From Gammaproteobacteria bacterium (lineage in GTDB: Bacteria > Pseudomonadota > Gammaproteobacteria > Eutrophobiales > Eutrophobiaceae), in NCBI GenBank assembly GCA_965221695.1, contig OZ244905.1, positions 288,001 through 352,000 of the forward strand: a stretch of DNA of 64,000 bases. The letters are read 5' to 3'. Every line of letters starts with the position of its first letter. Position 1 is the first letter of the stretch. The notes beneath the pieces were generated by a model, which did not search any database, had not been told where the DNA came from, and saw only the letters and a program-made list of their open reading frames with translations. Positions 35,633-62,579 of this stretch are shown one piece after another. A program made the translations under genes and the position numbers.

Positions 35633-36920
35633 GCTCCGCGTCAGCCACCAGCGCCCCGGCGCTTTCGTTATACTGCTTGACCAGCACAGTCATTATGCTG
35701 TTGGGACGGTGAGATTCGCCCGAAACCGCGATGGCTGTGCGCAAGTAATTTGGGGAGTAGCCGAAACGGACCTTTTTTCCGTTAATTTCTCCTGTATTGC
35801 TTTCAACCAGGATCTCGAAGCGCCGGCCCACATAGCCGCGCATATAGTCATGTTTCATCTGCGCAGCCAACTGCAGCAATTGCGCGCAACGTTGTTTCCT
35901 TAGCTGGCGCGGCAGTTGTCCCGGCAACAGGGCTGCCCGTGCGCCGGCGCGGGCTGAGTATGGAAAAACATGGATATGTGGAAACCCGATTTCCCGACAA
36001 AAATCCATGGTTTGCCGCCATTCTTGTTCGGTTTCGCCAGGAAACCCGGCGATAATGTCCGTGCTGATGTTCAAGTCAGGAACCCGTTGTCTGAGCCGCT
36101 CAACCAGCTTGATAAACTGCTTAGGTTTGCAACGCCGGCCCATGCGCCGCAATACGCTGTCACAACCGCTTTGCATGGGCAGATGCAAGTGAGGCATAAA
36201 TCCAGGTTCATTGAACAGTTCAAAAAAGTCTTCACCGATATCCCAAGGCTCCAGCGAACCTAGTCGTAATCTGGGAATCTTGGTTTCAGCGAGGACCGTT
36301 TTGATCAATGCCGGCAGGTTGGTTCCCAAGTCATGTCCATAACCGCCGATATGCACGCCGGTCAGAACTGCTTCCTGGATCTGATATGAGTGTAATGCAT
36401 TGATCTCCTCAACTATCTGCCTGATTGTCCGGCTGCGCTCCGCGCCCCGGGCCAGCGTGACAACGCAGAATGCGCATCGATGCCGGCAGCCGTCCTGTAT
36501 CTTGATGAATGCCCGGTTGCGCCCCCGGCTGAACAGGGCAGTTGTTCCCGGTTCTGTGGTTGCATTCGGCATGGTCTTCAAGTCCAGCCGTTGTGTTACG
36601 ATATCCGTCAGGCGATCCTTGTCCTGGTTGTCCACGACCAGGTCTATGCCCGGCAATTGTTTGACTGCGTCCGGATGCAGGCTCGAATAACAACCGCTGA
36701 CCACCAGCTTGGATTGTTTGTTGCTTCGCCGGATGCGCCGAATCAACTGCCTGGATTTTTTCGCCGCCTCACAAGTTACCGCGCAGGTATTGACGACTAT
36801 CAGGTCGGCATCTTCCGTGCCTGTGGTCAACTGGTTTCCCTGCGCCTGGAAAGCCGATGCCCAGCGTTCCAGTTCGGCCTCGTTCAGGCGGCACCCCAGC
36901 GCTTTAAGCGCAACTTTCAT
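35571..36920 (-). CDS. mtaB: tRNA t6A37 methylthiotransferase
   Basis: [38 protein letters not shown] and a G..PNY tail typical of MtaB. Confidence 0.85.
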
Positions 36921-38070
36921 AGTTCTCGATGGTCGCGCGCGCGATGATCAGCTTCTGTATCTCGGAGGCGCCTTCATAGATGCGTAGCGCGCGTATTTCA
37001 CGATACAGTTCTTCCACTTTTTCGCCTCGCGTTACGCCACGCCCGCCGAATAATTGGACCGCCTGATCTATGACCTGCTGCGCGGCTTCGGTTGCATGCA
37101 ATTTTGCTATGGCGGCTTCCCGCGTGATACGTTCCACCACGCAGTCCCGGGTCCAGGCGGCACGGTACACCAGCAGCGCGCTGGCATCGATAGCCACAGC
37201 CATGTCGGCAAGCTTGCCCCGGGTCATCTGCATATCTGCAAGAGTTTTGCCAAAGAGCTGCCGTGTGTTGGTGTGTCTGAGCGTTTCTTCCAGCGCACGC
37301 CGGGCGAAACCCAGCGCCGCAGCGCCAACGGTTGAGCGAAACATGTCTAAAGTGTCCATGGCTACTTTGAAACCCTCTCCGGGGCTGCCCAGCAGGTTTG
37401 TACTGGGAACCCTGCAATCCTTGAATTCAAGCCGGGCCAGGGGGTGGGGCGCAATCACTTCGATGCGCTCAGCGATTTCCAGGCCCTGTGTGCCGGCATC
37501 GACAATGAAGGCGCTGAGGCCCGCTGCGCCGCTTTCCTCACCGGTTCGGACAAACAGGGTATAAAAATCGGCGATACCGCCATTGGACACCCATGTCTTC
37601 TCGCCATTGATGATGTAGTCGTCGCCATCCGGCGTGGCTGTGGCGCTCAGCGCCGCGACATCGGAACCGGCCGCGGGTTCGGACAAGGCAAATGCAGAAA
37701 TCTTCTCGCCTTTGCGGACCGCAGGAAGGCGAGCGTTTTTTTGTTCCTGGTTCCCAAACAGCGCGATAGCGCCGCTGCCCAGTCCTTGCATTGCAAAAAC
37801 AAAATCAGCAAGACCGGAATGGCGCGCCAGGATCTCACGGATAAGACATAATGATCTGACATCCGGAGAGTTGTCGGAGTCGGGCGCCGGCGCGGCATGA
37901 TTGAGCCAGCCGCCGTCAGCCAGGAGTTTTACCAGTCTCTTGCAGGTCTGATCGACATTATCCGGATGCCGGCCGTTCAGTGCGCGCCTGGCCCACTCAT
38001 CCAGTTCAGTCGCCAGCAGTCTATGCTGATCCGTAAAAAAAGGCCAATCAAGAAAACTGTGGTCAATCAC
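36904..38070 (-). CDS. Acyl-CoA dehydrogenase of anthraniloyl-CoA (abm) clusters
   Basis: [26 protein letters not shown] and [10 protein letters not shown]; same partners as the Azoarcus abm cluster. Confidence 0.85.
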
Positions 38071-38872
38071 CTTTGAATTCCGCTTGGCTCTTATTCATAA
38101 AAGCCATGTAGGCGCGCCGGAAATCCTCCGTCTGCATGCAGATTGCCTGGGCCTGGGCCTCAGCTTCAAGAGCTTGATCCGGCGCCATATTCCATTCCTG
38201 ACGCAACATGGTTTTGGTGACGCCATGGGCAAATGTCGGTCCGTTTGAAAGCCGTTCGGCCAGTTTGCGCGCCTCAAGCGCCAACTCGTCTGTCGTTGCC
38301 AGAAAGTTATAAAATCCCCAACGATGGCCTTCTTCCGCGCTCATGCTGCGACCGCTGTAGAGCAGTTCCGAAGCGCGTCCGTGGCCGATAATCCTGGGCA
38401 GAATGGCGCAGGCTCCCATATCGCATCCGGCTAGTCCGACGCGGGTGAAAAGAAACGCGGTTTTTGCTTCCGGCGTGGCGATGCGCATATCGCTGGCCAT
38501 CGCGATACAGGCGCCGGCGCCCACGCAAACGCCGTCCACTGCAGCAATGAGCGGTTGCGGGCAGTAGAGCATGGCCTTGATGAGGTCGCCGGTCATTCGG
38601 GTAAACGCCAGCAGGTCTTTCATATTCATTTTCGTCAATGGCCCAATGATGTCGCGCACATCGCCACCGGAACAAAAATTCCCCTGCGCGCCGGCAATGA
38701 TCACAACTTTAACGTCATTGGCATCGGACAGGAGACGGAATGTATCACGCAATTCCGCGTAGGAGTCAAATGTCAGAGGATTCTTTTTCTCAGGACGGTT
38801 AAGGGTCAGTGTGGCTATGCCGTCGGAACAGGACCAGGAAAAATGTTGTGGGCGATGATCTTGCATATTCAT
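38063..38872 (-). CDS. Enoyl-CoA hydratase/isomerase of abm clusters
   Basis: [33 protein letters not shown] and [10 protein letters not shown]; start set at MNMQ. Confidence 0.88.
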
Positions 38873-38898
38873 TTGGTTTACCAGGCTCGTTATCGGGC

Positions 38899-39663
38899 TT
38901 ACATGACCTCGCCGCCGGCTATCGGAATGGACTGGCCGGTAATCGATTCGCTGCCAGGCAGGCATAACCACGCGACTGCCGTAGCCACTTCCTGCGGTTC
39001 AATAAACCGATGTTGCGGATTCATTGATTTCAGGCGTGTCTCTGCGTCCTCTCGTGTCATACCGGTCTTGTCCATAATCCTGGATATCGCTTCCGTGATC
39101 AGGTCCGTATTGGTATAGCCGGGACAGATCGCGTTGACAGTCACGCCGGTATTGGCCAGTTCCAGCGCCAGGGACCGGGTCAGGCCGATCATACCGTGCT
39201 TGGCCGCGCAATAGGCGGATACGTAAGCATATCCAGTCAGTCCGGCTGTGCTTGCAATATTGACGATACGACCCCAATCGGCCTCCAGCATTCCATCAAG
39301 CGCTTGCTTGCTGCAATAAAACGCGCCGTTCAAGTTCACAGCCAGAGTCTGTTCCCAGTTCTTGCCGTCAATACGCGCAAATGGATTACTGTAAACTGCG
39401 CCGGCATTGTTCACCAGGATGTCGACCGGACCAAAAATGGTTATCGCCCGGTCAAACCCGGTTCGCACGGCGCTTTCGTCGGTCACGTCAACCTGTATTG
39501 AGTTAGCCCGTTTCAGTTTTTTCTCATGGGCATGCAAAACGCTTTGTGTCCGACCCATGAGGGTAATCCTGGCGCCCAAACGGTCCAGTTCGGCAGCGAT
39601 GGCGGCTCCTATGCCTTTGCCTCCACCTGTAACCACTACATGTTTATCGCTGAGCGCGGTCAT
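38899..39663 (-). CDS. Short-chain dehydrogenase (3-hydroxyacyl-CoA dehydrogenase-like, abm type)
   Basis: [17 protein letters not shown] and CPGY. Confidence 0.88.
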
Positions 39664-39709: not shown

Positions 39710-40867
39710 TCAACGATTAACCGTGTGGCCGCAGGCCATGCCGGCAATGATCATCTTCTGTATGTTGGATGTCCCTTCCACTACTTGCAGAGATTTGGCG
39801 TCGCGGTAAAACCGTTCCGCAGGATATTCAGTGGAATAGCCATAGGAACCGAAGATCTTCATGCACTCGTTCGCGCTGTGCACGGCCGCCTCGGATGCCG
39901 CCAGTTTAGCCATGGAGGTCTCATACTGATTGGGCTTGCCTTGGTCTTTCAGCCAGGCAGCCTTGTACACCAGCAAACGCGCGGCCTCGTGTTCTACTGT
40001 CATTTCAGCGATCTGGGACTGGATCATCTGATGCCGAGAAATGGGCTGGCCGAATTGTGTGCGTTCATTGGCATAGTCTATCGCAAGTTGCAGCGCGCCA
40101 CCGGCCACGCCCAAGGCGCCGGCCGCGCAACCGAGACGGGTATTATTCAACTGCCACATGCACATCCTGAAACCATTATTCAGCTCTCCGAGCAGGGCGC
40201 TACGGGGGATGCGCGCGCCCTCAAACACGAATTCGCCTGTTGGAGAACAGTGCAGGCCCAGTTTGGTCTCTATCGGCCGCGCCACGCAACCCTCCAGTTC
40301 CTTAGGTTCTATGATAAAGCAACTGATGCCCTTGTTGCCTTTTTCCCTGTCCGTGTAGGCATAGAGCAGCCCGGCATCGCCGATGTGAGCGTTGGAAATC
40401 CAGATCTTGCTGCCGTGTAATTCAAAATAATCGCCCTTGTCAATAGCATAGGTCTTCATGCTGGCAACATCGGAACCCGTATCCGGCTCAGTCATGGCGA
40501 AGAAGCCGATTTTTGTGCCGCTGATCCAGCCCGGGATATATTTCTCCTGTTGCTCCCTGGAGCCGAACTTTGCTATGGAAAGCGGTGGGCCGAGGTTTTG
40601 CATATTGAACGGCAAGCGCCAGGAAGCCGACACCCGGGCAATCTGTTCCGCCATCAGCGCTGATTCCAAAAAGCCCATCCCGTTTCCGCCAAGTTGTTCC
40701 GGCAGGGCGCAGGAAAAAAAACCAAGATCACCCATTTGCGCCACGCGTTCCTGTTTAAATTCCCGATTTTTTTCCTCTTCCTCCAGGGTAGGGGCTATCT
40801 CTTCCAAGGCGAAGCGTCTGGCGGTGTCCTGCACCAGTTGCTGTTCTTCAGTTAACTCAAAAAACAT
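39710..40867 (-). CDS. Glutaryl-CoA dehydrogenase, non-decarboxylating type
   Basis: ACAD motifs; YAYTD, SPTGE, YGYSTEYP.. and V-E-G (not the Y-E-G of decarboxylating GCDH), resembling the Desulfococcus enzyme; adjacent to gcd genes. Confidence 0.8.
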   Translation of the reverse strand: MFFELTEEQQLVQDTARRFALEEIAPTLEEEEKNREFKQERVAQMGDLGFFSCALPEQLGGNGMGFLESALMAEQIARVSASWRLPFNMQNLGPPLSIAKFGSREQQEKYIPGWISGTKIGFFAMTEPDTGSDVASMKTYAIDKGDYFELHGSKIWISNAHIGDAGLLYAYTDREKGNKGISCFIIEPKELEGCVARPIETKLGLHCSPTGEFVFEGARIPRSALLGELNNGFRMCMWQLNNTRLGCAAGALGVAGGALQLAIDYANERTQFGQPISRHQMIQSQIAEMTVEHEAARLLVYKAAWLKDQGKPNQYETSMAKLAASEAAVHSANECMKIFGSYGYSTEYPAERFYRDAKSLQVVEGTSNIQKMIIAGMACGHTVNR

Positions 40868-40880: not shown

Positions 40881-41102
40881 TTATTCGGTCTTGATAGACA
40901 TCAAGGGTTGATCTTCCTCTACCGCATCCCCTTCCTTGACGTATATTTCTTTGACTGTACCGTCACAGGGCGCATATACTGGCGTTTCCATCTTTAATGC
41001 CTCAATAATAAGTATCTCGTCATCTTCTTCGACTTTTTCATCCACAGTCACCGAGATTTTCCAGATAGCGCCGGAGAGAGGCGCCAACACTTCTTCCGTC
41101 AT
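40881..41102 (-). CDS. gcdC: Biotin carboxyl carrier subunit of Na+-transporting decarboxylase
   Basis: 73-aa biotinyl domain with EALKME. Confidence 0.85.
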   Translation of the reverse strand: MTEEVLAPLSGAIWKISVTVDEKVEEDDEILIIEALKMETPVYAPCDGTVKEIYVKEGDAVEEDQPLMSIKTE

Positions 41103-41119: not shown

Positions 41120-42223
41120 TTATTTCAATATAGTCAGAAATATGCCGGCCGCAATCACGGTTCCGATCACACCGGCAATATTGGGTCCCATCGCAAACAT
41201 AAGCAAATAATTCTTTCTATCCGCTTCTGAACCGACTTTCTGTGCGACACGGGCCGCCATCGGCACCGCCGATACGCCCGCGGCGCCTATCAGCGGATTG
41301 ATTTTATGCGCCGTGAAGACATTGATCAGTTTAGCCAGTAATACACCACTTGCCGTGCTGATCATGAATGCGAACAGGCCGAGCAGGAAAACCAGGATAA
41401 CATCGGCATGTAAAAAGCGGTCTGCGCTCATGGTGGCGCCGATACTGACGCCCAGGAAAATGGTCGCGATATTCATCAGGGAATTGCGCGCGGCATCCGT
41501 CAGACGCTCGACCACCTTTGATTCCCGGAACAGGTTGCCCAGCATAAACATAGAGATCAACGGAGCCGACGCGGGCACTATCAGGATAATCACCAGCGTG
41601 GCAACGATGGGAAACAGCAGTTTTTCTTTTGCCCCGACCTTGCGCCCTTTGCGCATGCGAATCTTCCGTTCATCTTCCGTGGTCAACAGGCGCATTATCG
41701 GCGGCTGGATGATGGGCACCATGGCCATGTAGGAATAGGCGGCGACGGCGCAGGCTCCCAGCAGGTGCGGCGCCAGTTCAGCCGCCAGAAAGATGGTTGT
41801 GGGTCCGTCTGCGCCGCCGATAATACTGATAGTAGCCGCGTCCTGCAGATCGAAACCCATCCACCAGGCAAGAAAAAACGTCAGGTATACCCCGACCTGC
41901 GCGCCGGCGCCAAGAAAGATAAGGCGGGGTTGCGCAAGCAGCGGGCCAAAATCTGTGAGCGCGCCCAGTCCGAGGAAGATCAGGGGAGGTATGATGCGCC
42001 ACTCGATTCCGTGGTGATAGAAGCGCCACAGCAGCCCGTCTCCAGGGTCCATTAACCCGGTCAGGGGCAGATTGGCTAGCAGAATGCCAAATCCTATCGG
42101 CAACAACAGTAGTGGTTCATATTGTTTGGCTATGGCCAGGTAGATTAATGCCAGTCCTATCAGCCACATTGCCAGCAATTCGCCGGTGACCGCGAAAATG
42201 CCCATGTTTTCTATAAATGCCAT
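41120..42223 (-). CDS. gcdB: Na+-translocating decarboxylase beta subunit
   Basis: YEPLLLLPIGFG, IIGGADGPT, AAYSYMA, GVSAVPMAAR and AMGPN (OadB/GcdB family). Confidence 0.95.
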   Translation of the reverse strand: MAFIENMGIFAVTGELLAMWLIGLALIYLAIAKQYEPLLLLPIGFGILLANLPLTGLMDPGDGLLWRFYHHGIEWRIIPPLIFLGLGALTDFGPLLAQPRLIFLGAGAQVGVYLTFFLAWWMGFDLQDAATISIIGGADGPTTIFLAAELAPHLLGACAVAAYSYMAMVPIIQPPIMRLLTTEDERKIRMRKGRKVGAKEKLLFPIVATLVIILIVPASAPLISMFMLGNLFRESKVVERLTDAARNSLMNIATIFLGVSIGATMSADRFLHADVILVFLLGLFAFMISTASGVLLAKLINVFTAHKINPLIGAAGVSAVPMAARVAQKVGSEADRKNYLLMFAMGPNIAGVIGTVIAAGIFLTILK

Positions 42224-42231
42224 GAATCGAG

Positions 42232-42360
42232 CTACTCGTCCTGTTCAGTATCCTTGCTGTCCGGCGTCAGCGCCAGCAGTTTAATGATCACATACAACAT
42301 CCCCATACCGGCTGCCACGCCGCCGATACCGTTAAAGAAAACTTCCAATACTTGTTCCAT
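42232..42360 (-). CDS. Small membrane subunit of the decarboxylase (OadG/GcdD-like), 42 aa, absent from the ORF track
   Basis: Translated by hand: MEQVLEVFFNGIGGVAAGMGMLYVIIKLLALTPDSKDTEQDE; single TM helix; 15-bp and 8-bp gaps to its neighbours. Confidence 0.8.
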   Translation of the reverse strand: MEQVLEVFFNGIGGVAAGMGMLYVIIKLLALTPDSKDTEQDE

Positions 42361-42375: not shown

Positions 42376-44109
42376 CTATCTTCTGATGATCCTGGGCAGC
42401 ATCATCTGGTGTCTTGGACAGATTGAGCGAGGATTCTGGTGCGCGGCGCCGGCAAACGCCGTGAGATAATTTCTGAGTTCAACCAGGTCCACGATTTCGT
42501 CGACGAGGCCGTAACGCGCGCAATATTCAGGGTTGGAATGTTGCCGATATTGCTCGGCCAGGGCGTTCATCTTGTCAGCCACCTCATCCAACGGTTTACC
42601 CGCGTCTTTTTGTTTGACTGCGCGTCTTGAGTACATGGCAACCGCCGCGGTTTCTCCATGCATGACCGCAATCTCGGTAGCCGGGGTGCCTAGCGTGAAC
42701 GCATTGTGGCGATTCGCGGTCGGTCCACCCATCAGGTAATGGGCCGCGGCCGTGCCTTTGCGCAGAACGACAAGCATCATGGGAATGTCGGTTTGCTGTA
42801 TAGAATAAATCAGGGACTGGCCCAGACCCAGCAACTCGGCTTTCTCTGCCAGCTCGCCAACGTCTATGCCTGAAGTATCCTGGAACCAGACAATCGGAAC
42901 CCGGTCTCGACCGCAGTGAGTGACAAACTCGTTCATCTTGATCAGCCCCTGGCGATACAGTTTCCCTCCCATACCCGGATAGTCTGCATACTCCGGATAG
43001 CCTTTGCCGAGGTAACCGGAACGATTTCCGATACATCCAACCACGAAACCGTCCAGTCTGCACAACCCCGTATAAACCTCCGGGCCATAGTCGGGACGGA
43101 ATTCCATATGTTCACTGGCATCTACTAACCGGGCCAGAATTTCGTCGAATGAATACACTTCTTTCTGGTTGGAGGGCAGCAGGCAATACAAATCTTCAGT
43201 CGCGTAGGCTGGCTCAGCAGGCTCTGCTACCCGAAAAAAACGGGGTTTATAAGCGGGTATGGCCTCCATGTAGTCTCTGATGCCATCCAGCACCTCGGTC
43301 TCTTCCTCGAAGACCTCGGTAAAGAAGCCCGTCTCATGGTAATGAGTCTCGACCCGTCCAGGTGGTTTGGCGCTGAATGAACGGGTCATTTCAACCAGTT
43401 CTTCCAGGGCCTCAGCGCTGAATCCACCTTTCGGGGACATACCCGAGACGATGCCAACGCCACCAACAGCTATGTTCGCGTTCTTGTGAGCCAGGAGAAT
43501 AGTGGGACTGATGCCATGGTAGCCGCCGCCGGCAGGATTTGTGCCGTAGATGCCGGCAAGCACGGGGATACCAAGCTGGTTCAATTCCGCATGGCGAAAG
43601 AATGTGGCGCCCGATCCGCGCCGGTTGGCATAGAACTTTTCCTGCTCATCCAGTTTCACACCACTGCAGTTAACCAGCCAGATCAAGGGCACATTAAGTC
43701 GCTTGGCCAAGTCGGTAACACGTAAGATGTTCTCCGATTGGCCCGGCAACCAGGCGCCGGCCAGCACCTTGTTGTCAAAACCGATCACCACTGCCCAACG
43801 TCCCGCCACCCTGGCAAGCCCGTCTACCACATTGGTTGAACCGTTGGCATTGTCTGAAGGATTGTACAAACTGTGCAAAGGCCGCCAGGAACCCGGATCG
43901 ATGAGATGTTCCAGGCGTTGCCAGACAGTCATTGTGCCGCGCTGGTTGATCTGTTCGGTGGAGAAACCCGCCTGCTCGATATCTTTTCTGCATTGCGCAA
44001 TGTCCGCTTCCACCTGTTTAAGCTGTTCGATGCTTGCGGCAGCGCGCTTGATCCGGCCGGACTTCAACTGTTTGCCAAATCGTTGCATGTTCTCGAAATA
44101 AGATTTCAT
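42376..44109 (-). CDS. gcdA: Glutaconyl-CoA decarboxylase alpha (carboxyltransferase) subunit
   Basis: DNKVLAGAW.PGQ, NCSGVK.DEQEK, GTNPAGGGYH.ISP, GKLYRQGLIKMNEF and HQMMLPRII, all as recalled for Acidaminococcus GcdA. Confidence 0.92.
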   Translation of the reverse strand: MKSYFENMQRFGKQLKSGRIKRAAASIEQLKQVEADIAQCRKDIEQAGFSTEQINQRGTMTVWQRLEHLIDPGSWRPLHSLYNPSDNANGSTNVVDGLARVAGRWAVVIGFDNKVLAGAWLPGQSENILRVTDLAKRLNVPLIWLVNCSGVKLDEQEKFYANRRGSGATFFRHAELNQLGIPVLAGIYGTNPAGGGYHGISPTILLAHKNANIAVGGVGIVSGMSPKGGFSAEALEELVEMTRSFSAKPPGRVETHYHETGFFTEVFEEETEVLDGIRDYMEAIPAYKPRFFRVAEPAEPAYATEDLYCLLPSNQKEVYSFDEILARLVDASEHMEFRPDYGPEVYTGLCRLDGFVVGCIGNRSGYLGKGYPEYADYPGMGGKLYRQGLIKMNEFVTHCGRDRVPIVWFQDTSGIDVGELAEKAELLGLGQSLIYSIQQTDIPMMLVVLRKGTAAAHYLMGGPTANRHNAFTLGTPATEIAVMHGETAAVAMYSRRAVKQKDAGKPLDEVADKMNALAEQYRQHSNPEYCARYGLVDEIVDLVELRNYLTAFAGAAHQNPRSICPRHQMMLPRIIRR

Positions 44110-44234: not shown

Positions 44235-44633
44235 ATGTCTATGCGGATATTACAACCACCCGGCTGGCCATATCCCCGAGGTTACTCCAATGGCATCATG
44301 GCGCGTGGCAGGATGATCTTCATCGCCGGACAAATCGGTTGGGATGAAACAAATATCATACAAAGCGACCGCCTCGCTGACCAAGTTCGCCAGGCCCTGA
44401 AAAATACCCTTGCAGTGCTGAGCGAAGCGAATGCCGGACCTGAACATGTCGCCAGGATGACCTGGTATGTCGTTGATAAACAGGAATATTTGTCGTCCCT
44501 GAAAGAAATCGGAAAAGCGTACCGGGATGTTATGGGCAACAACTACCCGGCAATGGCATTGTTAGAGGTGTCCGGATTACTTGAGGACAGGGCAAAAGTG
44601 GAAATCGAAACCACAGCCGTCCTACCAGATTGA
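44235..44633 (+). CDS. RidA/YjgF family protein (abm-cluster type)
   Basis: LQPPGW..PRGYSNG, AGQIGW and AKVEIETTAV. Confidence 0.9.
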   Translation: MSMRILQPPGWPYPRGYSNGIMARGRMIFIAGQIGWDETNIIQSDRLADQVRQALKNTLAVLSEANAGPEHVARMTWYVVDKQEYLSSLKEIGKAYRDVMGNNYPAMALLEVSGLLEDRAKVEIETTAVLPD

Positions 44634-44800: not shown

Positions 44801-44829
44801 TTGACACTAAAATAATTTGCGCTTAAAAT
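44801..44829 (+). promoter_or_regulatory. Sigma70 promoter of rplM-rpsI
   Basis: TTGACA-17 bp-TAAAAT. Confidence 0.8.
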
Positions 44830-45290: not shown

Positions 45291-45318
45291 CGGCGCACAC
45301 TACTACTCGGACACAGAT

Positions 45319-52318: not shown

Positions 52319-52330
52319 GTGAAGAATACT

Positions 52331-55121: not shown

Positions 55122-55558
55122 AAGACCAATCAGGCCCTCCTGCCGCGCGCTCCCATCTTTGGCAGCGCGTCAACCAGACTGCCGCTGAGGGAACGCTCAG
55201 ACTGCAGGTCTGCAAACACTGCGGCAAGACGCAGTATCCGCCGCAGGAATTCTGCAGTGTTTGTCTGAGCGATGACTTATCGTGGGAACAGGTCAACCCT
55301 TTAGGCAAAACGCTTTCATGGACTACAAGCCATGCCAGCAACAACCGGTTTTTCAAGGATCGATTGCCTCTTCACATTGGAATGATTAAACTGGATTGCG
55401 GTCCTGTTATGATTGCTTATCTGGCAGCGTCCTGTTTACGCGCCGGCAGCAGGACACAAATCTCGGTTTATCCTGATAAATCCGGCCAGGCCGTCTTCCT
55501 TGCCGCGCCGCCGGGCTCAGATCCTGCGCCTGAATTCAGCAACATACTGATTGAATAA
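55118..55558 (+). CDS. DUF35 zinc-ribbon/OB-fold protein
   Basis: CKHCG..QYPP..FCSVC zinc ribbon plus OB fold; ATGA overlap with the thiolase gene. Confidence 0.88.
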   Translation: MKDQSGPPAARSHLWQRVNQTAAEGTLRLQVCKHCGKTQYPPQEFCSVCLSDDLSWEQVNPLGKTLSWTTSHASNNRFFKDRLPLHIGMIKLDCGPVMIAYLAASCLRAGSRTQISVYPDKSGQAVFLAAPPGSDPAPEFSNILIE

Positions 55559-55632: not shown

Positions 55633-56364
55633 ATGATAAAAAAAAATCAAGTAGTGGTCGTTACCGGCGGCAACCGGGGTATCGGCGCGGATATTACCCG
55701 GCGCTTTCTCAACAGCGGCTACCTCGTCGTCAATATATCCAGGCAGCCCCCTGAGTTTGCGCATGAACGCCTGATCAATTATACCGCTGACCTGGCGAAT
55801 CAACAGGCAACACGGGAAGTCGGCATGGAGATAGCGAAACAGCATGAGGTTACGAACTTCATTCACAATGCCGGCGTCATCCGTCCCGATTTGCTTGAAA
55901 ATGTCAGTCTTGAAGACCTGGATTACTTAACCCAACTGCACTTGGGCAGCGCGATCACTTTGGCGCAACAGTTTGTGCCGGCAATGCGCGCGGCGCAGTT
56001 CGGCAGGATCATCCTCATCTCATCCCGCGGCGTGCTGGGCTTGGTGACTCGTACCAATTATGCGGCTACCAAGGCCGGACAGATTGGCATCACGCGCACC
56101 TGGGCATTGGAATTGGCAAAAGACGGGATTACGGTGAATTGTGTGGCGCCCGGGCCGATTGTGACGGATATGTTCCATGAGCTGGTTCCGGACGACAGCG
56201 AACAAAAGACACAGATCGCGGAGAGCGTTCCGGTCAAACGCTTGGGTACTCCTCAAGACATCGGGCGCGTGGTTGAATTTTTGTGCGCGCCAGACAGCGG
56301 CTTCATTACCGGACAGACCTGGTATATCTGTGGCGGCGCCAGCCTGGGCTCGCTGGCTTTGTGA
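55633..56364 (+). CDS. Short-chain dehydrogenase/reductase
   Basis: TGGNRGIG, NAG, YAATK and TRTWALELA. Confidence 0.9.
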   Translation: MIKKNQVVVVTGGNRGIGADITRRFLNSGYLVVNISRQPPEFAHERLINYTADLANQQATREVGMEIAKQHEVTNFIHNAGVIRPDLLENVSLEDLDYLTQLHLGSAITLAQQFVPAMRAAQFGRIILISSRGVLGLVTRTNYAATKAGQIGITRTWALELAKDGITVNCVAPGPIVTDMFHELVPDDSEQKTQIAESVPVKRLGTPQDIGRVVEFLCAPDSGFITGQTWYICGGASLGSLAL

Positions 56365-56445: not shown

Positions 56446-57690
56446 TCAAATTATGACCAATATCAGATAAAACGCCGCGAATAATGTCAGCGCCCAGACG
56501 CAGACCACACTGTAGCGAGTCAGTCCTGGCGCTGGCTGCATCTTTGCCGGCACATCTTCGGAATGCATGGCGCGGTGAATTAGCCAGGCCAGCGCTGGCG
56601 CAGTCAGAAACGCCAGGGTAGTGGCGATATCGATCAGGGTTTTGAATGATTGAAGGAAAAACATGATGATGGACAGGGAAATCAGGATCATTCCCAGGAT
56701 AGTAGCCAGATAAATCCTGAAGCGCAGCTTCTCCGGCAATGCTTCGTTCCTGAAACAATTAACCAGAGCGCATACAGTGCGTGGGTAGCCATCGTGTATG
56801 ACCAGTACGGTGGATAGCATGACTGCGAATGCGGCAATGGCAATAATTGGCCTGGTCCATTGTCCCAAGAGCGAAGAATAAATGTTGACGAGTTGCGCTG
56901 AAAACTCGGCCGGAGAAGATGAAAACTGCAGGTCGGAACCATGCATCACCGCAGCCCCCAGCATCAGAAAGCAGAGCGCGGTCACGATAGTCGAGCAATA
57001 CCCGACGTGATAATCCAGTTTTACCTCTGCGGCGGACAGCTTGTTCTGTTTGTTCTTTTCCAGGACCCACAACGATTGCCAGATGCAGGTTTCGAATGGC
57101 GCCGGCATAAAGCCGATCAATGCCGCCAGAAACAAAATCGATGACCTGTTGAATACGTCAGGTGTGAGAATATCGGCCTGCCCCCAGTCGATCAAGGGCA
57201 TGGAGAGTGACGTTGCCGCCAGGGTAGAGACAAACAGGATCAGGAGCAGGATTTTTGTAATACTGTCCAACCAGTGGTACTGGCCGGCTATCAGGCAGAT
57301 GCCGGAAAAAGCACAGATACAAGCAGCCACCACGGCGATAGGCAGGTTCAGGTTAAAACTGATCACTGCCAGACCGCTCGTCACCAACACCACTGCTGCA
57401 AACCCGGTAAACATCACACAAAATATCACCAGCGCGCACAGCCATACGGCCCAGCTTCCCTGACGGCGAAAACCGGTCAGCAAGTGTTGCCCGGTGGCGT
57501 AAGCGTATTCATGTCCGAAACGGAAGATCGGGTATTTCATAGCAAAAGCCAGCAGGATGAACAACAACAAGTCCATCCCGTAAAGGGCGCCGGCGCGGGT
57601 TGCCTGCACCAGGTGGGATACCCCGATAGCCGCGGCAGCCATCAACAGTCCGGGACCAAGAACTGTGAACAGCCTGTATTTCCATTTCAT
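56446..57690 (-). CDS. NRAMP-like/APC-fold membrane transporter
   Basis: LGPGLLMAAAAIGVSHLVQATRAGA.YG; about 11 TM helices; start set at MKWK because the upstream in-frame extension runs through a MITE remnant. Confidence 0.8.
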   Translation of the reverse strand: MKWKYRLFTVLGPGLLMAAAAIGVSHLVQATRAGALYGMDLLLFILLAFAMKYPIFRFGHEYAYATGQHLLTGFRRQGSWAVWLCALVIFCVMFTGFAAVVLVTSGLAVISFNLNLPIAVVAACICAFSGICLIAGQYHWLDSITKILLLILFVSTLAATSLSMPLIDWGQADILTPDVFNRSSILFLAALIGFMPAPFETCIWQSLWVLEKNKQNKLSAAEVKLDYHVGYCSTIVTALCFLMLGAAVMHGSDLQFSSSPAEFSAQLVNIYSSLLGQWTRPIIAIAAFAVMLSTVLVIHDGYPRTVCALVNCFRNEALPEKLRFRIYLATILGMILISLSIIMFFLQSFKTLIDIATTLAFLTAPALAWLIHRAMHSEDVPAKMQPAPGLTRYSVVCVWALTLFAAFYLILVII

Positions 57691-57755
57691 CAGAGCATGA
57701 TAACCACGGTTTGCGCATTTGACCACCATAACAACGCCTCCCCGCCTGGATACGC

Positions 57756-57793
57756 GCTCTGACAAGTCCAGAATGGATTTATCAGATCTTTCC
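57756..57793 (-). repeat. Left-end fragment of the MITE family
   Basis: Reverse complement GGAAAGATCTGATAAATCCATTCTGGACTTGTCAGAGC matches the first hairpin of copies B and C. Confidence 0.75.
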
Positions 57794-57920
57794 AAAATTT
57801 ACACGGCAAAAAACGTATGCCTCTATCTTGACCTGCTTCTCAAGGTTTGGGATAAAGCTCTTGAAACAAAACCGGATTTGATGGATGATGGCAAGATGGT
57901 AAAAAACACTTAGGTTTCCC

Positions 57921-59165
57921 ATGGATGCTATTCCGATTCCCTGGAGTAAGATACGTATTTATTTTTTGCTTCTCCTCTTTCTGACAGGTTGTGACGCGCA
58001 ACAACCGGCGGATGAATCTGCGCCGGTTGCTATCTCATCCGGCGAGAAGGATACGTATGTGGACACCAGCAAGGGACCTCTGTCCAAGGACATTTTTGGT
58101 AAGGTTGCCAGTTTGCCGGAAACGCCGCATCCCCACTGGGTCTGGATTTATGATATCGCCGCCAGTTCAATGCCGGACGGGCGCGCCTATCTGTATGATG
58201 GAAACAGCGCACGGTTGCTGGGCATGCTCAATACCGGATATTCCTTCAATGCGTTGAATATTCCCAGCCATTACCGGGAAGTCTATTCGGCTGAAACATA
58301 TTATGCCAGAACAACCCGCGGGGCACGCGCCGATGTGGTCAGTATTTACGACCCGTTCACGCTATTACCGGTAACTGAAATAGCGATCCCTGCAAAACGC
58401 GTGTCCACCCTGCCCAGGCTGGCAGATTCTGCATTGACCGACGATGATCGTTTTATGGCTGTTTTCAACCTGACGCCGGCGGCGTCATTGAGCATTGTGG
58501 ATCTGACGCAGCGCCGATTTGCCGGAGAAGTTATGATCCCCGGCTGCGCAATGGCTTATGGCGCCGGCGACAGACGTTTCTTCGCACTGTGCAGCGACGG
58601 GACGCTGCTGCTGATCGACCTGACAGAAGAGGGCGGGCAGGCCACATCGCAAAGAAGCGAGCCTTTTTTCAACGCGCTTGAGGATCCGATCCTGGAGACC
58701 GGCGCCCGTCAAGGCAACGTTTGGTATTTCATGTCGGTTCTGGGAAAAGTCCATCCGGTGGAAATCGCTGCCGGCGGACCGGATTTTCCCGATACCTGGT
58801 GGTACCTGGATGAGCAGGATCGAGACAACAACTGGCGCATAGGAGGAATACAGGCCGTCGCCCTGCATAAGGCGACTGAACAGCTCTACCTGTTGATGCA
58901 TCAGGGTGATTTCTATTCCTACGAAGCGCCCGGACCGGAAATCTGGGTTTATGATCTGGCCACCCGCGCGCGCCTGAAAAAAATCAGGACCAGACATCCC
59001 AGCATATCGATCGCAGTGAGTCAGGATGACAGTCCGCTGCTATACACGATAACCGAAGATTTGAAGAGATTGGAAATCTATGACGCAATTAACGGTGAAT
59101 ACCTGCGCTCAGCCGGAGAACTGGGTATCACGCCGTTTTTAATTGAGCCGTTGCCGTTGCTATAG
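57921..59165 (+). CDS. TTQ amine dehydrogenase large (beta-propeller) subunit, MauB/AauB-like, with lipobox
   Basis: YSAETYYAR.TRG.R.DVV, FNLTPA.S, PGC, CSDG, WRIGG.Q, LLMH, EIWVYD and VSQD..PLLY; N-terminal LTGC lipobox. Confidence 0.88.
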   Translation: MDAIPIPWSKIRIYFLLLLFLTGCDAQQPADESAPVAISSGEKDTYVDTSKGPLSKDIFGKVASLPETPHPHWVWIYDIAASSMPDGRAYLYDGNSARLLGMLNTGYSFNALNIPSHYREVYSAETYYARTTRGARADVVSIYDPFTLLPVTEIAIPAKRVSTLPRLADSALTDDDRFMAVFNLTPAASLSIVDLTQRRFAGEVMIPGCAMAYGAGDRRFFALCSDGTLLLIDLTEEGGQATSQRSEPFFNALEDPILETGARQGNVWYFMSVLGKVHPVEIAAGGPDFPDTWWYLDEQDRDNNWRIGGIQAVALHKATEQLYLLMHQGDFYSYEAPGPEIWVYDLATRARLKKIRTRHPSISIAVSQDDSPLLYTITEDLKRLEIYDAINGEYLRSAGELGITPFLIEPLPLL

Positions 59166-59221
59166 AGCAAGATTCAAACATTCATATCAATTTATTCCGC
59201 CGATGATTGTGAGGGTAAAAC

Positions 59222-59740
59222 ATGAGGTTTTTTGATCGCTGGTTCCAAGATAGGAGCCGCTCCCTGGCGCTCCGCACATCGCGCCGGAGCTTTTTGCAGA
59301 AAGCCGGTATCCTGTTGGTTGGCGCCGGCGCTGTGCCGTTGCTGCCCGTCGCCAGGGCGAATACGGCGCCGGAGGACAGCTCGATTGCCGGACCTGAAGG
59401 CGATCCGGAAAAATGCGAGTACTGGCGCAACTGCGGTATGGATGGTTTTCTTTGCTCTTGTTGCGGCGGCAGCCACATCAGTTGCCCGCCTGGCACAGAG
59501 ATGGCGCCCATGACCTGGGTAGGCACCTGTAAAAACCCTGCGGACGGGCGCGACTATATTATTGCCTACAATGACTGCTGCGGCAAAAGCACCTGCAATC
59601 GCTGCATGTGCAATCGCAACGAGGGCGACCTGCCTAATTATTTCCCATCCAAGAGCAATGATATCAACTGGTGTATGGGCTCCAGTAACAATGTCTATCA
59701 CTGTACGACCACTATATTGCTGGGATTGGCGGTGAGCTGA
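59222..59740 (+). CDS. TTQ amine dehydrogenase small subunit, AauA/MauA-like
   Basis: Tat motif SRRSFL; C.YWR.C..DGFLCSCCGG, W in TWVGTC, Y.DCCG and W in DINWC (both TTQ tryptophans present). Confidence 0.93.
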   Translation: MRFFDRWFQDRSRSLALRTSRRSFLQKAGILLVGAGAVPLLPVARANTAPEDSSIAGPEGDPEKCEYWRNCGMDGFLCSCCGGSHISCPPGTEMAPMTWVGTCKNPADGRDYIIAYNDCCGKSTCNRCMCNRNEGDLPNYFPSKSNDINWCMGSSNNVYHCTTTILLGLAVS

Positions 59741-59755
59741 CCTTAGGTTGGTCCG

Positions 59756-61075
59756 ATGGGCATATCTATCTGCAATGATGAGATAGCTTCACTGGTTCAG
59801 CCGGACCGGGTGCATAAACGGGTTTACACGGACCCGGCCATATTCGACCTGGAGATGGAACGCATATGGGGCAATGCCTGGATCTATATCGGCCACGAGA
59901 GCCAGGTGAAACGCCCTGGAGACTTCTTTACCACTACGCTGGGCAAACAATCGGTTATCGTCACCCGGCATAGCGATAACCGGATCTATGTGCTGTATAA
60001 CCGCTGCGCTCATAAGGGCGCTCAGTTGATCGCGCAACCCTGCGGTCACGCGCGGCAACTACGTTGCGCGTATCATGGCTATGTATTCGATACGGCCGGC
60101 GTCCTCACGCATATCCCCCGGGAGGAAGGATACAAAGATACGGACTTCGCGCGTGCTACGACTCTGACCGGCATCCGCCAAGTAGCCAGGGTCGAGACGT
60201 ATCGCGGCTTTATTTTTGCCAACCAGGCGCCGCATGGAGCCGATTTGGCAAGCTGGTTGGGACTGGCCACCACTTCCCTTGATAATGCCGTCGACAGGTC
60301 GCCTACTGGCGAGATCGAGATGACCGGCGGTGTATTGCGTTATCTGCATGACGCCAACTGGAAGATCCTGTTGGAAAACGTATCTGACAATATGCATCCT
60401 GCGGTCACTCACCAGTCTGCGTGGCAACCGGCAAAACGTCTCGCCAGTGAATATCCGGAAGATCAGAAGCCTTTGCCGCTTGCCATGCTGGAACCTTTCG
60501 GTTCAAGTTACGAGTTTTTCGACAAGATAGCAATGACCACTTGCGGCAACGGCCACACCTGGTCCGGCGGCAATGCAACAATCCATATCGGTTATCCGCG
60601 TGAATCGAAATACGTGCGCGACCTGGTGGCAGTCCACGGAGAGGAGCAGACCAAGCGCATACTTTCCATGCAACGGCAGAATACCATCATCTATCCCAGT
60701 ATCGCGTTCAAGAGCGCATTACAGACGATCCGGGTTTATCGCCCCATAGCTGTCGACAAGACAATACAGGAGACCTGGACGTACAAGCTGGGCGGGGTAT
60801 CAGACGATGTGTTGCATACTTCGACGCTTTACAACCAGTTGATCTTCTCGCCGTTTTCCATAGCCGGCCATGATGATTATGAAGCTTACCACCGCATCCA
60901 GCACGGACTGCAGGCAGACGCTTCCGAGTGGGTGAGTCAGCACCGCCATTATGGCCGCGACCAGCGCAATGATGACGGGACCGTACAGGCACGCGGCACC
61001 AGCGATATCGTATTCCGACACGAGTTTGAAGCCTGGAAGAACTACATGACATTATCGCATGTGGAAGCCTCCTGA
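59756..61075 (+). CDS. Second IadD-like Rieske oxygenase alpha subunit
   Basis: CAHKG...CAYHG; ENVSDNMHPAVTH; clear paralog of 48571-49884. Confidence 0.9.
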   Translation: MGISICNDEIASLVQPDRVHKRVYTDPAIFDLEMERIWGNAWIYIGHESQVKRPGDFFTTTLGKQSVIVTRHSDNRIYVLYNRCAHKGAQLIAQPCGHARQLRCAYHGYVFDTAGVLTHIPREEGYKDTDFARATTLTGIRQVARVETYRGFIFANQAPHGADLASWLGLATTSLDNAVDRSPTGEIEMTGGVLRYLHDANWKILLENVSDNMHPAVTHQSAWQPAKRLASEYPEDQKPLPLAMLEPFGSSYEFFDKIAMTTCGNGHTWSGGNATIHIGYPRESKYVRDLVAVHGEEQTKRILSMQRQNTIIYPSIAFKSALQTIRVYRPIAVDKTIQETWTYKLGGVSDDVLHTSTLYNQLIFSPFSIAGHDDYEAYHRIQHGLQADASEWVSQHRHYGRDQRNDDGTVQARGTSDIVFRHEFEAWKNYMTLSHVEAS

Positions 61076-62579
61076 AAGAATAAAGCACAAACCGCATCCT
61101 GGACAAAGCCCGACAGCAGAGGAAGCCGGTCGAGCTTTGATGTTCAAGCCAATCAAACTCGGGGCTCTCACCCTGGAGCAGCGCACCTGGGTGCCGGCGA
61201 TGGTGCCATGGCGCTCCAACGAGGACGGTTTCGTCACCGATGACGTGCTGGACTGGTATCAGCGTTTCGCTCAAGGACAACCAGGGGCCATCGTCATCGA
61301 GGCAACTGGCATTCGGGATATTCCCAGCGGGCCGTTGTTGCGTATCGGCGATGATCGATTTATACCGGGATTGAGGGAGCTGGTGGATGTAGTGAAATCA
61401 GCAAGCAACGGAAAAACCCGCCTGTTGATACAAGTGATCGACTTTCTGACTATACGCCGACGGCCGGATCCGGCTAAATATTTCTCCCGTTTTCTGGTTA
61501 TTACAGACCGTCACAGGGCAATACTGAACGCCCATGATTGGCCGGAAGAACGCGTTAGGACACACTTGGCCGAGTTGCAGGATGAGGAGCTTGACGGGAT
61601 TTTAACTGAAAGGGAACTGGAGACGCTGCGTATGGGATATCGGGAGCGGGTCACTGACCTGCATCTGCCTCATATCAGAAACCTACCCCAGACAATGCCT
61701 GAGCTGTTTGCCCAGGCCGCGCGGCGCGCGATGGAAGCAGGAATCGATGGCGTAGAACTCCATTACGCCCACGCCTACACAATGGCGTCATTTCTGTCCG
61801 CAACCAATTCCCGTAATGACGGTTACGGCGGCAACCGGGAACAACGCGCGCGCCTGCCCCTGAAAACCTTCCGACATGTGCGCAATATGGTTGGCTCCGA
61901 TTATTGTGTGGGCTGTCGCTTTCTTTCCGATGAATGCATCGAAGGAGGCAGTGACGTCGACGATGCCGTGTATTACGCGGTGGAATTTGCGCGGGCAGGC
62001 ATGGATTTTATTTCTCTCTCCCGGGGCGGCAAATTCGACGATGCCAAACAACCGCAAATTGGTTGGGCTGCCTATCCTTATACGGGGCGCAGCGGCTATG
62101 AATGCATGCCTGGCTACATCTCCGATAAAAAAGGTCCTTTTGGCAGAAACATTGAGCCGGTTGCCCGCATCAAACTAGCCATCAATAACGCGGGATATGC
62201 CACTCCCGTAGTCGTCATCGGCGGTTTGCACGGATTTCAACAGGCTGAGACGCTACTGCGCGAGGGAAAGGCGGATATTATCGGCGCCGCCCGTCAGAGC
62301 CTTGCCGACCCTGACTGGTATCTCAAGCTCAAGTTAGGCAAGGGCGACCAGATAAGAGTGTGCGAATATACCAATTACTGCGAAGGGCTGGATACAAAAC
62401 ACAAGCAGGTCACCTGCCAGTTATGGGACCGGTTGTATTTTAATGAGCCAGGGGTTAAATTATCGATTGACGGGCGCCGCCGGCTGCTCGCTCCTGAATG
62501 GGCAGACCTGCCTGATGCGCTTCCGAGCGCCCGGCAAGCGTCCGCAAAAGACGCGCCGGCAAAGACATTCGGCAAATAG
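61059..62579 (+). CDS. NADH:flavin oxidoreductase (Old Yellow Enzyme family)
   Basis: GVELHYAHAY, DGYGG..E.R.R, ARQSLADPDW and a C-terminal Cys cluster CEYTNYC...C. Confidence 0.88.
   Translation: MWKPPERIKHKPHPGQSPTAEEAGRALMFKPIKLGALTLEQRTWVPAMVPWRSNEDGFVTDDVLDWYQRFAQGQPGAIVIEATGIRDIPSGPLLRIGDDRFIPGLRELVDVVKSASNGKTRLLIQVIDFLTIRRRPDPAKYFSRFLVITDRHRAILNAHDWPEERVRTHLAELQDEELDGILTERELETLRMGYRERVTDLHLPHIRNLPQTMPELFAQAARRAMEAGIDGVELHYAHAYTMASFLSATNSRNDGYGGNREQRARLPLKTFRHVRNMVGSDYCVGCRFLSDECIEGGSDVDDAVYYAVEFARAGMDFISLSRGGKFDDAKQPQIGWAAYPYTGRSGYECMPGYISDKKGPFGRNIEPVARIKLAINNAGYATPVVVIGGLHGFQQAETLLREGKADIIGAARQSLADPDWYLKLKLGKGDQIRVCEYTNYCEGLDTKHKQVTCQLWDRLYFNEPGVKLSIDGRRRLLAPEWADLPDALPSARQASAKDAPAKTFGK

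Follow-up and report, generated by a model that had tools for sequence, protein, structure and literature searches.

A conserved two-armed gene island in an uncultured gammaproteobacterium may link amine oxidation, an iad-type oxygenase module and a sodium-pumping decarboxylase

Does a run of oxygenase, coenzyme A (CoA) and decarboxylase genes in an uncultured gammaproteobacterium encode one catabolic route or several? We addressed this question for a 64,000-nucleotide stretch of a Eutrophobiaceae genome (assembly GCA_965221695.1, contig OZ244905.1, positions 288,001 to 352,000), hereafter the window, in which positions are counted from its first letter. An initial annotation had proposed that positions 36904-62579 hold an integrated pathway from indole-alkylamines through indole-3-acetate (IAA) and anthraniloyl-CoA to glutaryl-CoA, with Na+ pumping. 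Our data suggest a single conserved island of catabolic genes, arranged in two divergent arms, that would convert an aryl-ethylamine and its acid to crotonyl-CoA, and we consider the chances for and against this reading to be evenly balanced. Our best guess for the substrates is tryptamine-type amines and IAA. The narrower claim is that the island encodes a complete route from the periplasm to central metabolism, in which tryptamine-type amines pass through a tryptophan tryptophylquinone (TTQ) enzyme, iad-type reactions and CoA-dependent dearomatisation to glutaryl-CoA. We regard this narrower claim as unlikely.

The limits 36904-62579 proved to be the first and last open reading frames (ORFs) of a block that, in the ORF listing of the window, is unlike its housekeeping surroundings. 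Every gene family named in the initial annotation was recovered where it had been placed (Pfam, NCBIfam and solved-structure matches). ORFs beyond that list were gcdC, a gcdD-like ORF, rplM-rpsI, a DUF485 gene and an Nramp-like permease gene. The minus-strand arm is led by gcdA and continues, in transcription order, with a 42-aa membrane ORF, gcdB, gcdC, acd and genes for a short-chain dehydrogenase/reductase (SDR), an enoyl-CoA hydratase (ECH) and an acyl-CoA dehydrogenase (ACAD). The divergent plus-strand arm starts with a RidA gene, followed by rplM-rpsI and genes for an AbmA-like flavoenzyme, Rieske oxygenase subunits alpha1 and beta, DUF485 and an ActP-type symporter. Its second part comprises genes for a CoA ligase, a thiolase-like protein, DUF35, an SDR, the TTQ heavy and light chains, a Rieske oxygenase alpha2 and a 506-aa flavoprotein of the old yellow enzyme (OYE) family. 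All island ORFs were intact.

We used the iad locus of a Variovorax genome, located by searching that genome, as the reference for the oxygenase module (locus L102; L and G numbers are our labels for loci and genomes). Its alpha subunit scored 994 bits to solved IadD, with ~15 differences over 429 residues (counted from the printed alignment). The ORFs of this locus encode a thiamine pyrophosphate enzyme, a POR/DUF6537 protein, a 330-aa FAD/NAD/2Fe-2S reductase, alpha, beta, a ligase, a thiolase, a DUF35-SDR protein, a cyclase and an SDR. This gene order fits the published order iadA to iadJ in the available text of 10.1101/2025.10.25.684584. The roles of Variovorax iadCDEFGHIJK2 in the conversion of IAA to anthranilate are described in the available parts of that report and of PMC10374108. 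Two other candidates for the Variovorax iad locus were rejected. One, a plasmid match (H36/L015), had no ligase or thiolase and another alpha pocket signature; the other (L084) lacked a thiolase or DUF35 and had another gene order, while its main alpha keeps the IadD signature.

Six plus-strand genes of the window reproduced the Variovorax order IadD-E-F-G-H-J. The alpha1 gene (48571..49884; 437 aa) encodes an IadD-type protein with 46% identity to Variovorax IadD, and the beta gene (49966..50466; 166 aa, PF00866) an IadE-type protein with 40% identity to IadE. Both were reciprocal best matches with the L102 proteins. A DUF485 small membrane protein and an ActP-type Na+/carboxylate symporter follow (50467..52318; PF04341 and PF00474). 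The symporter scored 693 bits with NF006903, below the cut-off of 750, and the DUF485/ActP pair was present in most congeners, in G019 not at this place. Next come an IadF-type CoA ligase (52319..53968; 549 aa, AMP-binding, 45% to IadF) and an IadG-type, SCP-x-type thiolase-like protein (53955..55121; 388 aa, Thiolase_C_1, 55% to IadG). An IadH-type DUF35 protein with zinc ribbon and OB fold (55082..55558; 158 aa, PF12172 and PF01796, 41% to the DUF35 part of IadH) and an IadJ-type SDR (55633..56364; 243 aa, adh_short, 51% to IadJ) complete the set. Each of these six L102 proteins had its best host-genome match inside the window; runner-up identities in that genome were 31% for IadF, 28% for IadG and 34% for IadJ.

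Both window alpha subunits had PDB 7YLS_B as their best solved match (460 bits for alpha1). This entry is cited in the Variovorax IadD/E structure paper (PMC10374108), whose available text names N210, L211, H216, H221, F251, H311, K322, R329 and Y362 as IAA-pocket residues of IadD and reports that mutation of pocket residues abolished IAA binding. We observed that alpha1 keeps 9 of these 9 residues. Among 90 aligned alpha sequences, the resulting signature N-L-H-H-F-H-K-R-Y was common to IadD, alpha1 and 78 others. The signature discriminates, because three paralogue groups carry other signatures. The proposal that the Rieske enzymes belong to the IadD family is thus borne out by the gene order and by the identical alpha1 pocket signature. 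Judged from sequence, the iad-type assignment is strong for family, order and pocket.

The island was conserved within the genus. An alpha1 orthologue with 82-91% identity and no internal stops was present in 22/22 congeneric genomes, and the block of TTQ heavy chain, TTQ light chain, alpha2, OYE and dksA was kept in the 5/5 congeners inspected. On these two results, the arrangement is not a chance juxtaposition. Island ORFs were conserved at 61-93% identity across congeners.

We also found 80 related loci in genome contigs by alignment of alpha sequences. Nine of them, with alpha identities of at least 85%, were treated as the same genus, and neighbours were scored within 10 kb in the 71 others (at least 50% query coverage, gene-specific identity cut-offs of 30-60%). 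The five-gene core of beta, ligase, thiolase, DUF35 and SDR was complete in 27/71 loci, and in 21/42 of those with full 10-kb flanks. An AbmA-like gene lay within 10 kb in 10/71 loci (6/42 with full 10-kb flanks), a TTQ gene in 4/71, a gene of the 506-aa OYE type in 4/71 and gcdA with acd in 3/71. Record titles of the 10 AbmA-like loci named Lysobacterales, Parvularculaceae, Alphaproteobacteria, Woeseiaceae, Pseudomonadales and Steroidobacteraceae. In three loci (L049, L051 and L066), the AbmA-like gene (65-67% identity) stands directly before the alpha gene, as it does in the window. Locus L039 carries the core, the 506-aa OYE type, IadI, IadA/B and the whole abm-like set. The counts for AbmA-like, TTQ and 506-aa OYE genes are above our informal expectation for unrelated units, with 20 kb being ~0.5% of a 4-Mb genome; the 71 loci are non-independent samples and no formal expectation was computed.

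The abm-like module is split between the two arms. The AbmA-like gene (45901..48294, plus strand; 797 aa) encodes an FAD monooxygenase joined to an OYE reductase. The N-terminal half is VioD-like, and the OYE half scored 288 bits to solved OYEs. On the minus strand lie the SDR (38899..39663; 254 aa, Pfam adh_short), the ECH-family protein (38063..38971; NF006107, 468.9 bits vs a cut-off of 330) and the ACAD (36904..38070; 388 aa, Pfam ACAD domains). The true ECH start is probably later than the listed GTG. The RidA-family deaminase gene (44235..44633; 132 aa, PF01042) is on the plus strand. A search for an Arthrobacter pAL1-type plasmid yielded, among the matches listed (at least 40), only Ralstonia, and a Ralstonia megaplasmid locus annotated with the NF006101 family (L111) was taken as reference. 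Its genes encode, in a row, an AbmA-like protein fused to an SDR, a MarR protein, ECH, ACAD, CoA ligase, thioesterase and RidA. Identities of the window proteins to this locus were 48% for AbmA-like, 56% for SDR (fused part), 60% for ECH, 54-66% for ACAD and 60% for RidA. Because of this gene-for-gene match, we place the left-arm SDR-ECH-ACAD genes with AbmA-like and RidA.

The same partners accompanied AbmA-like elsewhere. The set of AbmA-like, ECH, SDR, ACAD and RidA was matched in L037, L039 and L063 as in L111. In those three loci ECH was 65-70% and ACAD 59-61% identical, and RidA was 54-59% identical beside AbmA-like in L037, L039, L059 and L053. The grouping of AbmA-like with SDR, hydratase, ACAD and RidA partners as a module, as proposed in the initial annotation, is supported by the Ralstonia set. 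In anthranilate-grown Arthrobacter, anthraniloyl-CoA, hydroxyanthraniloyl-CoA and a probable cyclohexanedione-carboxyl-CoA were reported (PMC3534580, available text). These CoA esters fit a RidA-type deamination step.

The minus-strand arm also contained the proposed glutaryl-CoA dehydrogenase and decarboxylase genes. The gcdA gene (42376..44109; 577 aa, Pfam Carboxyl_trans) encodes a glutaconyl-CoA decarboxylase carboxyltransferase that scored 743 bits to solved Acidaminococcus GcdA (1PIX) and 703 bits to 3GF3. The gcdB gene (41120..42223; 367 aa) encodes the beta subunit of a Na+-translocating decarboxylase (PF03977, 518 bits; TIGR01109, 493 bits vs a cut-off of 190.6). Between them lies a small membrane ORF with a hydrophobic stretch (42232..42360; 42 aa), tentatively gcdD-like, which is assigned by position and hydrophobicity alone and had tblastn matches of 55-71% identity in congeners. 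The putative biotin carrier gene gcdC (40881..41102; 73 aa), kept at 65-86% identity in related loci, encodes the motif E-A-L-K-M-E-T, which we take to be of the biotinyl-lysine type. The acd gene (39710..40867; 385 aa), directly downstream of gcdADBC, encodes a probable non-decarboxylating, Desulfococcus-type glutaryl-CoA dehydrogenase. The arm accordingly has counterparts of all four Gcd subunits, those of GcdC and GcdD being putative, and a gene for an Acd-type dehydrogenase.

The gcdADBC-acd genes are followed on the same strand by SDR-ECH-ACAD, with gaps or overlaps of at most 46 bp except over the over-called ECH start. SDR-ECH-ACAD and acd-gcdADBC probably form one operon. This same-strand packing is the only evidence for a route ending at glutaryl-CoA. 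The abm-like and gcd assignments appear strong for family and neighbourhood.

The amine dehydrogenase genes lie near the far end of the plus arm. The TTQ heavy chain (57921..59165; 414 aa, PF06433, 171 bits) has a lipoprotein-type leader with an L-T-G-C lipobox-like N-terminus, and the light chain (59222..59740; 172 aa, PF02975, 167 bits) has a Tat-type leader with S-R-R-S-F-L. The light chain retained two Trp in its alignment to aromatic amine dehydrogenase (AADH), which we take to be the TTQ-forming positions. No named AADH was present among the 120 heavy-chain homologues listed. In a midpoint-rooted heavy-chain tree of unnamed sequences, the window chain clustered with the iad-adjacent chain of L023 (support 0.99). 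Maturation genes were found in trans, each single and unlinked to the structural loci: mauE (100 bits vs a cut-off of 27), mauD-like (181 vs 188.6) and CCP_MauG. The only CCP_MauG domain of the genome is in a 612-aa ORF with an N-terminal SCO1/SenC fusion (G000:C1:1517652-1519490, L114).

The host genome encodes four heavy/light TTQ pairs. One (G000:C1:889436-896207, L115) has PaaK (732 vs 646 bits) and PaaZ (996 vs 563) 1-3 kb away and is also near a TRAP transporter and a deacetylase-family gene; such a neighbourhood probably serves the conversion of phenylethylamine to phenylacetate. Another (G000:C1:2432809-2440009, L116) has a TonB-dependent receptor on one side and an ACAD and a carboxyltransferase on the other, and may belong to a branched-chain amine route. 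A pair at 2.99 Mb is near an IclR regulator and a fatty-acid desaturase. Because other TTQ pairs adjoin acid-degrading sets, a tryptamine-type role for the window pair is supported by analogy.

The plus arm ends with two genes that probably serve a variant substrate or a side step. Rieske oxygenase alpha2 (59756..61075; 439 aa) is an IadD-family paralogue with 409 bits to 7YLS_B and 52% identity to alpha1; it has no beta gene of its own. It keeps 7 of the 9 IAA-pocket residues, with the changes L211V and H311Q. The adjoining gene (61059..62579; 506 aa) encodes a truncated FadH/BaiCD-type OYE flavoprotein with an internal insertion, matched by PF00724 in 2 stretches. Its best NCBIfam model, BaiCD, covers only model positions 140-360. 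Homologues of this OYE (61-73%) lie beside IadD-type clusters in L024, L039, L053 and L066. A second, alpha2-type oxygenase is near iad in Variovorax as well: an alpha with the pocket N-I-H-H-F-Q-K-R-Y and a beta lie ~10 kb from IadD (L103:2927-4710). The alpha2-type pocket changes may have arisen twice, because the L103 alpha did not group with window alpha2 in the tree.

In the proposed route that follows, the substrates, the sequence of steps and the way in which the modules connect are all inferred. A periplasmic TTQ dehydrogenase, with a lipoprotein heavy chain and a Tat-exported light chain, would oxidise the amine to an aldehyde. An unlinked aldehyde dehydrogenase or oxidase would convert this to an arylacetate, and the acid, or IAA from outside, would enter via DUF485/ActP. 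The alpha1-beta IadD/E-type oxygenase, with an unlinked reductase as feeder, would oxygenate the pyrrole ring, and the IadJ-type SDR would bring the product to the dioxindole-acetate level. The IadF-type ligase would then form a CoA ester, from which the IadG-type thiolase-like protein and DUF35 would release acetyl-CoA to leave an isatin-level C8 product. Ring opening with loss of one carbon would yield anthranilate, to be activated by an unlinked ligase. We also considered a DUF35/thiolase step that gives the aroyl-CoA directly and rejected it by reasoning, since retro-aldol logic leaves CoA on the acetyl unit.

The remaining steps would be CoA-dependent. The AbmA-like enzyme would hydroxylate and reduce the aroyl-CoA, and RidA would take off the enamine nitrogen. 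Ring opening and chain shortening by ECH, SDR and ACAD would lead to glutaryl-CoA. Acd would oxidise glutaryl-CoA to glutaconyl-CoA, and GcdABCD would decarboxylate this to crotonyl-CoA while pumping Na+. The chaining of modules can reasonably be inferred from their recurrent co-localisation.

Several observations weigh against the proposed route, and a first group concerns its connecting enzymes. The island lacks an IadC-type reductase, an IadI-type cyclase, IadA/B, an aldehyde dehydrogenase and an anthranilate-CoA (second) ligase. As the initial annotation had stated, aldehyde dehydrogenase, isatin hydrolase and Rieske reductase are outside the window: 0/14 genome matches to PF00171 fell within it, and IadI- and IadC-like genes were located elsewhere. 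Its suggestion that the missing steps be sought elsewhere in the genome held for the aldehyde dehydrogenase family (the 14 matches), but IadI, IadA and the ligase had only weak stand-ins. The sole IadI-like cyclase-family match (33%) is at 2.02 Mb beside a DNA methylase, and IadA had a 24% match only. The candidate aroyl-CoA ligase, of the benzoate-CoA-ligase family, is at 2.84 Mb, 2.5 Mb away, and scored 314 bits against a cut-off of 375. It is the best homologue of the abm-linked ligase of Ralstonia L111, an ORF that aligned over 302 residues only. The neighbourhood of this candidate (G000:C1:2838408-2849053, L112) holds hydantoinase B and A, the benzoate-CoA-ligase-family gene, an amidase, a thiolase and a second ligase.

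The best IadC-like matches in the genome, all outside the window, were 26-28% identical. Across the 80 related loci, an IadC-like gene lay within 10 kb in 1, an IadI-like gene in 26 and an IadA-like gene in 15; the lack of a neighbouring IadC is the rule in this oxygenase family. Between its iad-like and TTQ genes, congener G014 has a TonB receptor, a hydantoinase pair and a molybdenum hydroxylase of three subunits; the hydantoinase and molybdenum hydroxylase are candidate enzymes for the aldehyde oxidation and ring opening that the island lacks. Several congeners have an extra CoA ligase after the IadJ-type SDR, which the host genome does not have at that place.

A second group of these observations concerns specificity and linkage. 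In a FastTree phylogeny, alpha1 and alpha2 fell in another major branch than IadD. Their branch, which is without a biochemically tested member, includes the alpha of Sphingopyxis sp. Root154 (55% identity). The AbmA-like protein scored 1031.7 bits with NF006101 (model positions 1-763/768), 46 below the cut-off of 1078. This family is named for salicylyl-CoA 5-hydroxylase, and with such an enzyme among its members the action of AbmA-like on 2-aminobenzoyl-CoA is putative. The best NCBIfam model of Acd, NF045552, gave 429.7 bits vs a cut-off of 470. For the proposed AauAB/AADH orthology of the TTQ pair, the two chains gave different pictures: the light chain was somewhat closer to AADH (157.6 bits to the AADH small subunit, its best solved match, vs 131 to P. 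denitrificans methylamine dehydrogenase (MADH) and 151.7 to the full-length 3C75 chain), but the heavy chain was equidistant (161 bits to MADH vs 159 to AADH). The iad-adjacent heavy chains of L085 and L094 lay in another clade than the window chain, which makes two clades, not one. Promoter-like sites numbered 7 and 9 vs shuffle means of 9.0 and 10.4, and terminator-like sites 22 and 20 vs 14.7 and 13.7 (sd ~3.8). These scans, not clearly above shuffles, are too weak to delimit transcription units.

The genes might instead be separate catabolic units and not one route, which we hold to be somewhat unlikely. The iad-type module would then take IAA to anthranilate or isatin, which the cell would excrete or reuse, for instance to make tryptophan. 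The TTQ pair would serve an unrelated amine, and the abm-like and acd-gcd genes would degrade an aroyl-CoA of other source. The location of IadI, aldehyde dehydrogenase, aroyl-CoA ligase and reductase outside the island favours such a split. AbmA-like was not found at E<=1e-100 in 8/22 congeners that keep alpha1, 7 of which are 96-100% complete, and one of the genomes without it (G009) keeps gcd, acd, ECH, ACAD and RidA beside alpha1. Outside the genus, gcd-acd occurs beside alpha1 in three loci (L023, L025 and L028), none of which had an AbmA-like gene within 10 kb; being the closest outside the genus (72-77% alpha identity), they may owe the gcd-acd/alpha1 link to inheritance. Inserts also separate the blocks, namely a photolyase in G022 and the TonB receptor, hydantoinase and molybdenum hydroxylase of G014. 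In the host genome, the housekeeping genes rplM-rpsI (44862..45711, plus strand; Pfam L13 and S9), which are outside the pathway, stand between RidA and AbmA-like. This is their sole copy in the genome, and the gap is without them in 4 congeners. The best promoter-like site of the region (44801-44829, 11/12 positions) precedes rplM-rpsI, and the terminator scan gave no clear terminator-like site between rpsI and the AbmA-like gene. Against separate units stand the occurrence of AbmA-like, TTQ and 506-aa OYE genes beside IadD-type clusters in several orders, at frequencies above expectation as described, and the repeated placement of AbmA-like directly before alpha. In the co-occurrence check that the initial annotation suggested for its one-route inference, the repeated co-localisation of AbmA-like and TTQ in other lineages was in favour; the congeners without AbmA-like and the location of the connecting enzymes speak against an obligatory chain.

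A single chain could also act on a non-indole substrate, an option that we consider distinctly improbable. It would start from another arylacetate or arylpropionate, as in ipf, and pass to a hydroxy- or otherwise substituted aroyl-CoA such as salicylyl-CoA. The name of the NF006101 family, with AbmA-like below its cut-off, and the alpha1 branch as described would suit such a chain. So would ibuprofen degradation, in which the ipfDE thiolase releases propionyl-CoA (PMC9195938, available text). Sphingopyxis Root154 degrades IAA, and in the available text of PMC11630574 its fragmented iad-like operon was uninduced by IAA. The nine identical IAA-pocket residues of alpha1, at which the neighbouring paralogue groups differ, and the six-gene iad order argue for an indole. 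Finally, the genes could be decaying remnants without present function. The pathway looks incomplete within the island and no local regulator was seen among the window ORFs scanned, but the intact ORFs, their identity across congeners and the stop-free alpha1 in 22/22 genomes make decay highly improbable. Our preferred reading is a single two-armed island that would act on an aryl-ethylamine and its acid, at the even balance given above.

If the chain is real, it would link three partly understood pathways. In the reports cited here, the iad-type pathway goes no further than anthranilate, and the bacteria studied were plant-associated. The window shows an iad-type core in an uncultured gammaproteobacterial genus, joined to genes for a putative upstream amine oxidation and a putative downstream CoA-dependent ring degradation. 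A literature search that did not cover subscription journals and supplements returned no published description of iad in combination with abm, gcd or TTQ. The combination, which the initial annotation did not know to be described as a unit, was the subject of no paper that we found.

We know of no resolved lower part of the aerobic 2-aminobenzoyl-CoA (abm) pathway. The island offers a testable proposal for it: RidA deamination, conversion by ECH, SDR and ACAD to glutaryl-CoA, then Acd and Gcd. If this is true, the packing of SDR-ECH-ACAD with acd-gcdADBC would show that the lower pathway ends at glutaryl-CoA. A Na+-pumping decarboxylase would conserve energy in an oxygen-using bacterium, where it would be used next to oxygenases. 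With alpha2 and the truncated OYE, the route would also reach substituted indoles. The parallel TTQ pairs beside acid-degrading genes suggest that TTQ paralogues generally feed amines into acid degradation, a logic that could help to assign their substrates.

The host genome is a single contig of 3.54 Mb with 55% G+C. The alpha1 query gave 23 matches in it and up to 41 in congeners; because of these 23 matches, we take the host to be an oxygen-using organism that leans heavily on oxygenases. The island is flanked on the left by genes for a MiaB-like radical-SAM protein, MsrA, PhaC, a thiolase, aconitase-type proteins, RadA, DnaB and UvrA, and on the right by dksA and an SMC-type gene. The MiaB/RimO-type radical-SAM gene (35571-36920) is on the same strand as the 388-aa ACAD gene and overlaps its end by 17 bp; it may therefore be co-transcribed with the catabolic genes. 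The Nramp-like permease gene (56446..57795; 449 aa) is on the minus strand between the IadJ-type SDR and TTQ heavy-chain genes. Its PF01566 match was weak (43.5 bits), it scored 62.9 bits with NF037982 vs a cut-off of 50, and congeners keep it next to the cluster (72-80% identity). At the far end of the window, a further Rieske oxygenase of the homotrimeric ring-hydroxylase type (PF11723) is encoded at 1305-2645 (minus strand). Other minus-strand ORFs encode a 935-aa protein whose sole match is a C-terminal SpoIIE phosphatase domain (11207-14014) and a 426-aa Sel1-repeat protein (24107-25387). ORFs at 32282-33649 (minus; 455 aa), 34512-35024 (minus; 170 aa) and 35150-35632 (plus; 160 aa) had no Pfam match.

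Compared with Variovorax iad, the window matches D, E, F, G, H and J in family and order (40-55%), and alpha1 has the IadD pocket signature. It is without IadC, IadI, IadA/B, an ABC binding protein and a MarR regulator. DUF35 is separate in the window, whereas it is fused to an SDR in Variovorax IadH. Uptake would depend on DUF485/ActP, unlike in Variovorax, and TTQ, abm-like and gcd genes adjoin the module. A CoA ligase and a Rieske alpha-beta oxygenase also belong to the ibuprofen ipf cluster of Sphingomonadaceae. Its ipfDE-type side-chain removal as acyl-CoA resembles that of the thiolase-like protein and DUF35 here; substrate and product differ, and the likeness meant here is one of logic.

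The window pair shares with Alcaligenes AADH and Paracoccus MADH the heavy- and light-chain families and has export signals, and the host genome has mauE, a mauD-like gene and a CCP_MauG gene as candidate accessory genes. In the window, the heavy-chain gene is directly followed by the light-chain gene. The candidate accessory genes occur once each and away from the structural loci, although the genome has four structural pairs. The window heavy chain is equally far from the solved Alcaligenes and Paracoccus types.

The abm genes known from Azoarcus evansii, and the related anthranilate-CoA route in Arthrobacter sp. Rue61a, involve a two-domain monooxygenase/reductase of the family found here, where it occurs with ECH, SDR, ACAD and RidA. 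The likeness to the Azoarcus cluster is one of gene composition, the sequences compared being those of Ralstonia L111. In contrast to these routes, no anthranilate-CoA ligase stands beside the window AbmA-like gene, whose family score is 46 bits under the cut-off, and the partner genes are on the other arm, tightly packed behind acd-gcdADBC. With Acidaminococcus GcdA and Desulfococcus Acd, the window shares GcdA, GcdB and an Acd-type best model, and it has a candidate biotin carrier and a small membrane ORF that is tentatively GcdD-like. To our knowledge, the pair of Gcd and non-decarboxylating Acd is otherwise known from anaerobes, whereas the gcd-acd genes of the window are in an oxygen-using host and form one same-strand run with abm-like genes.

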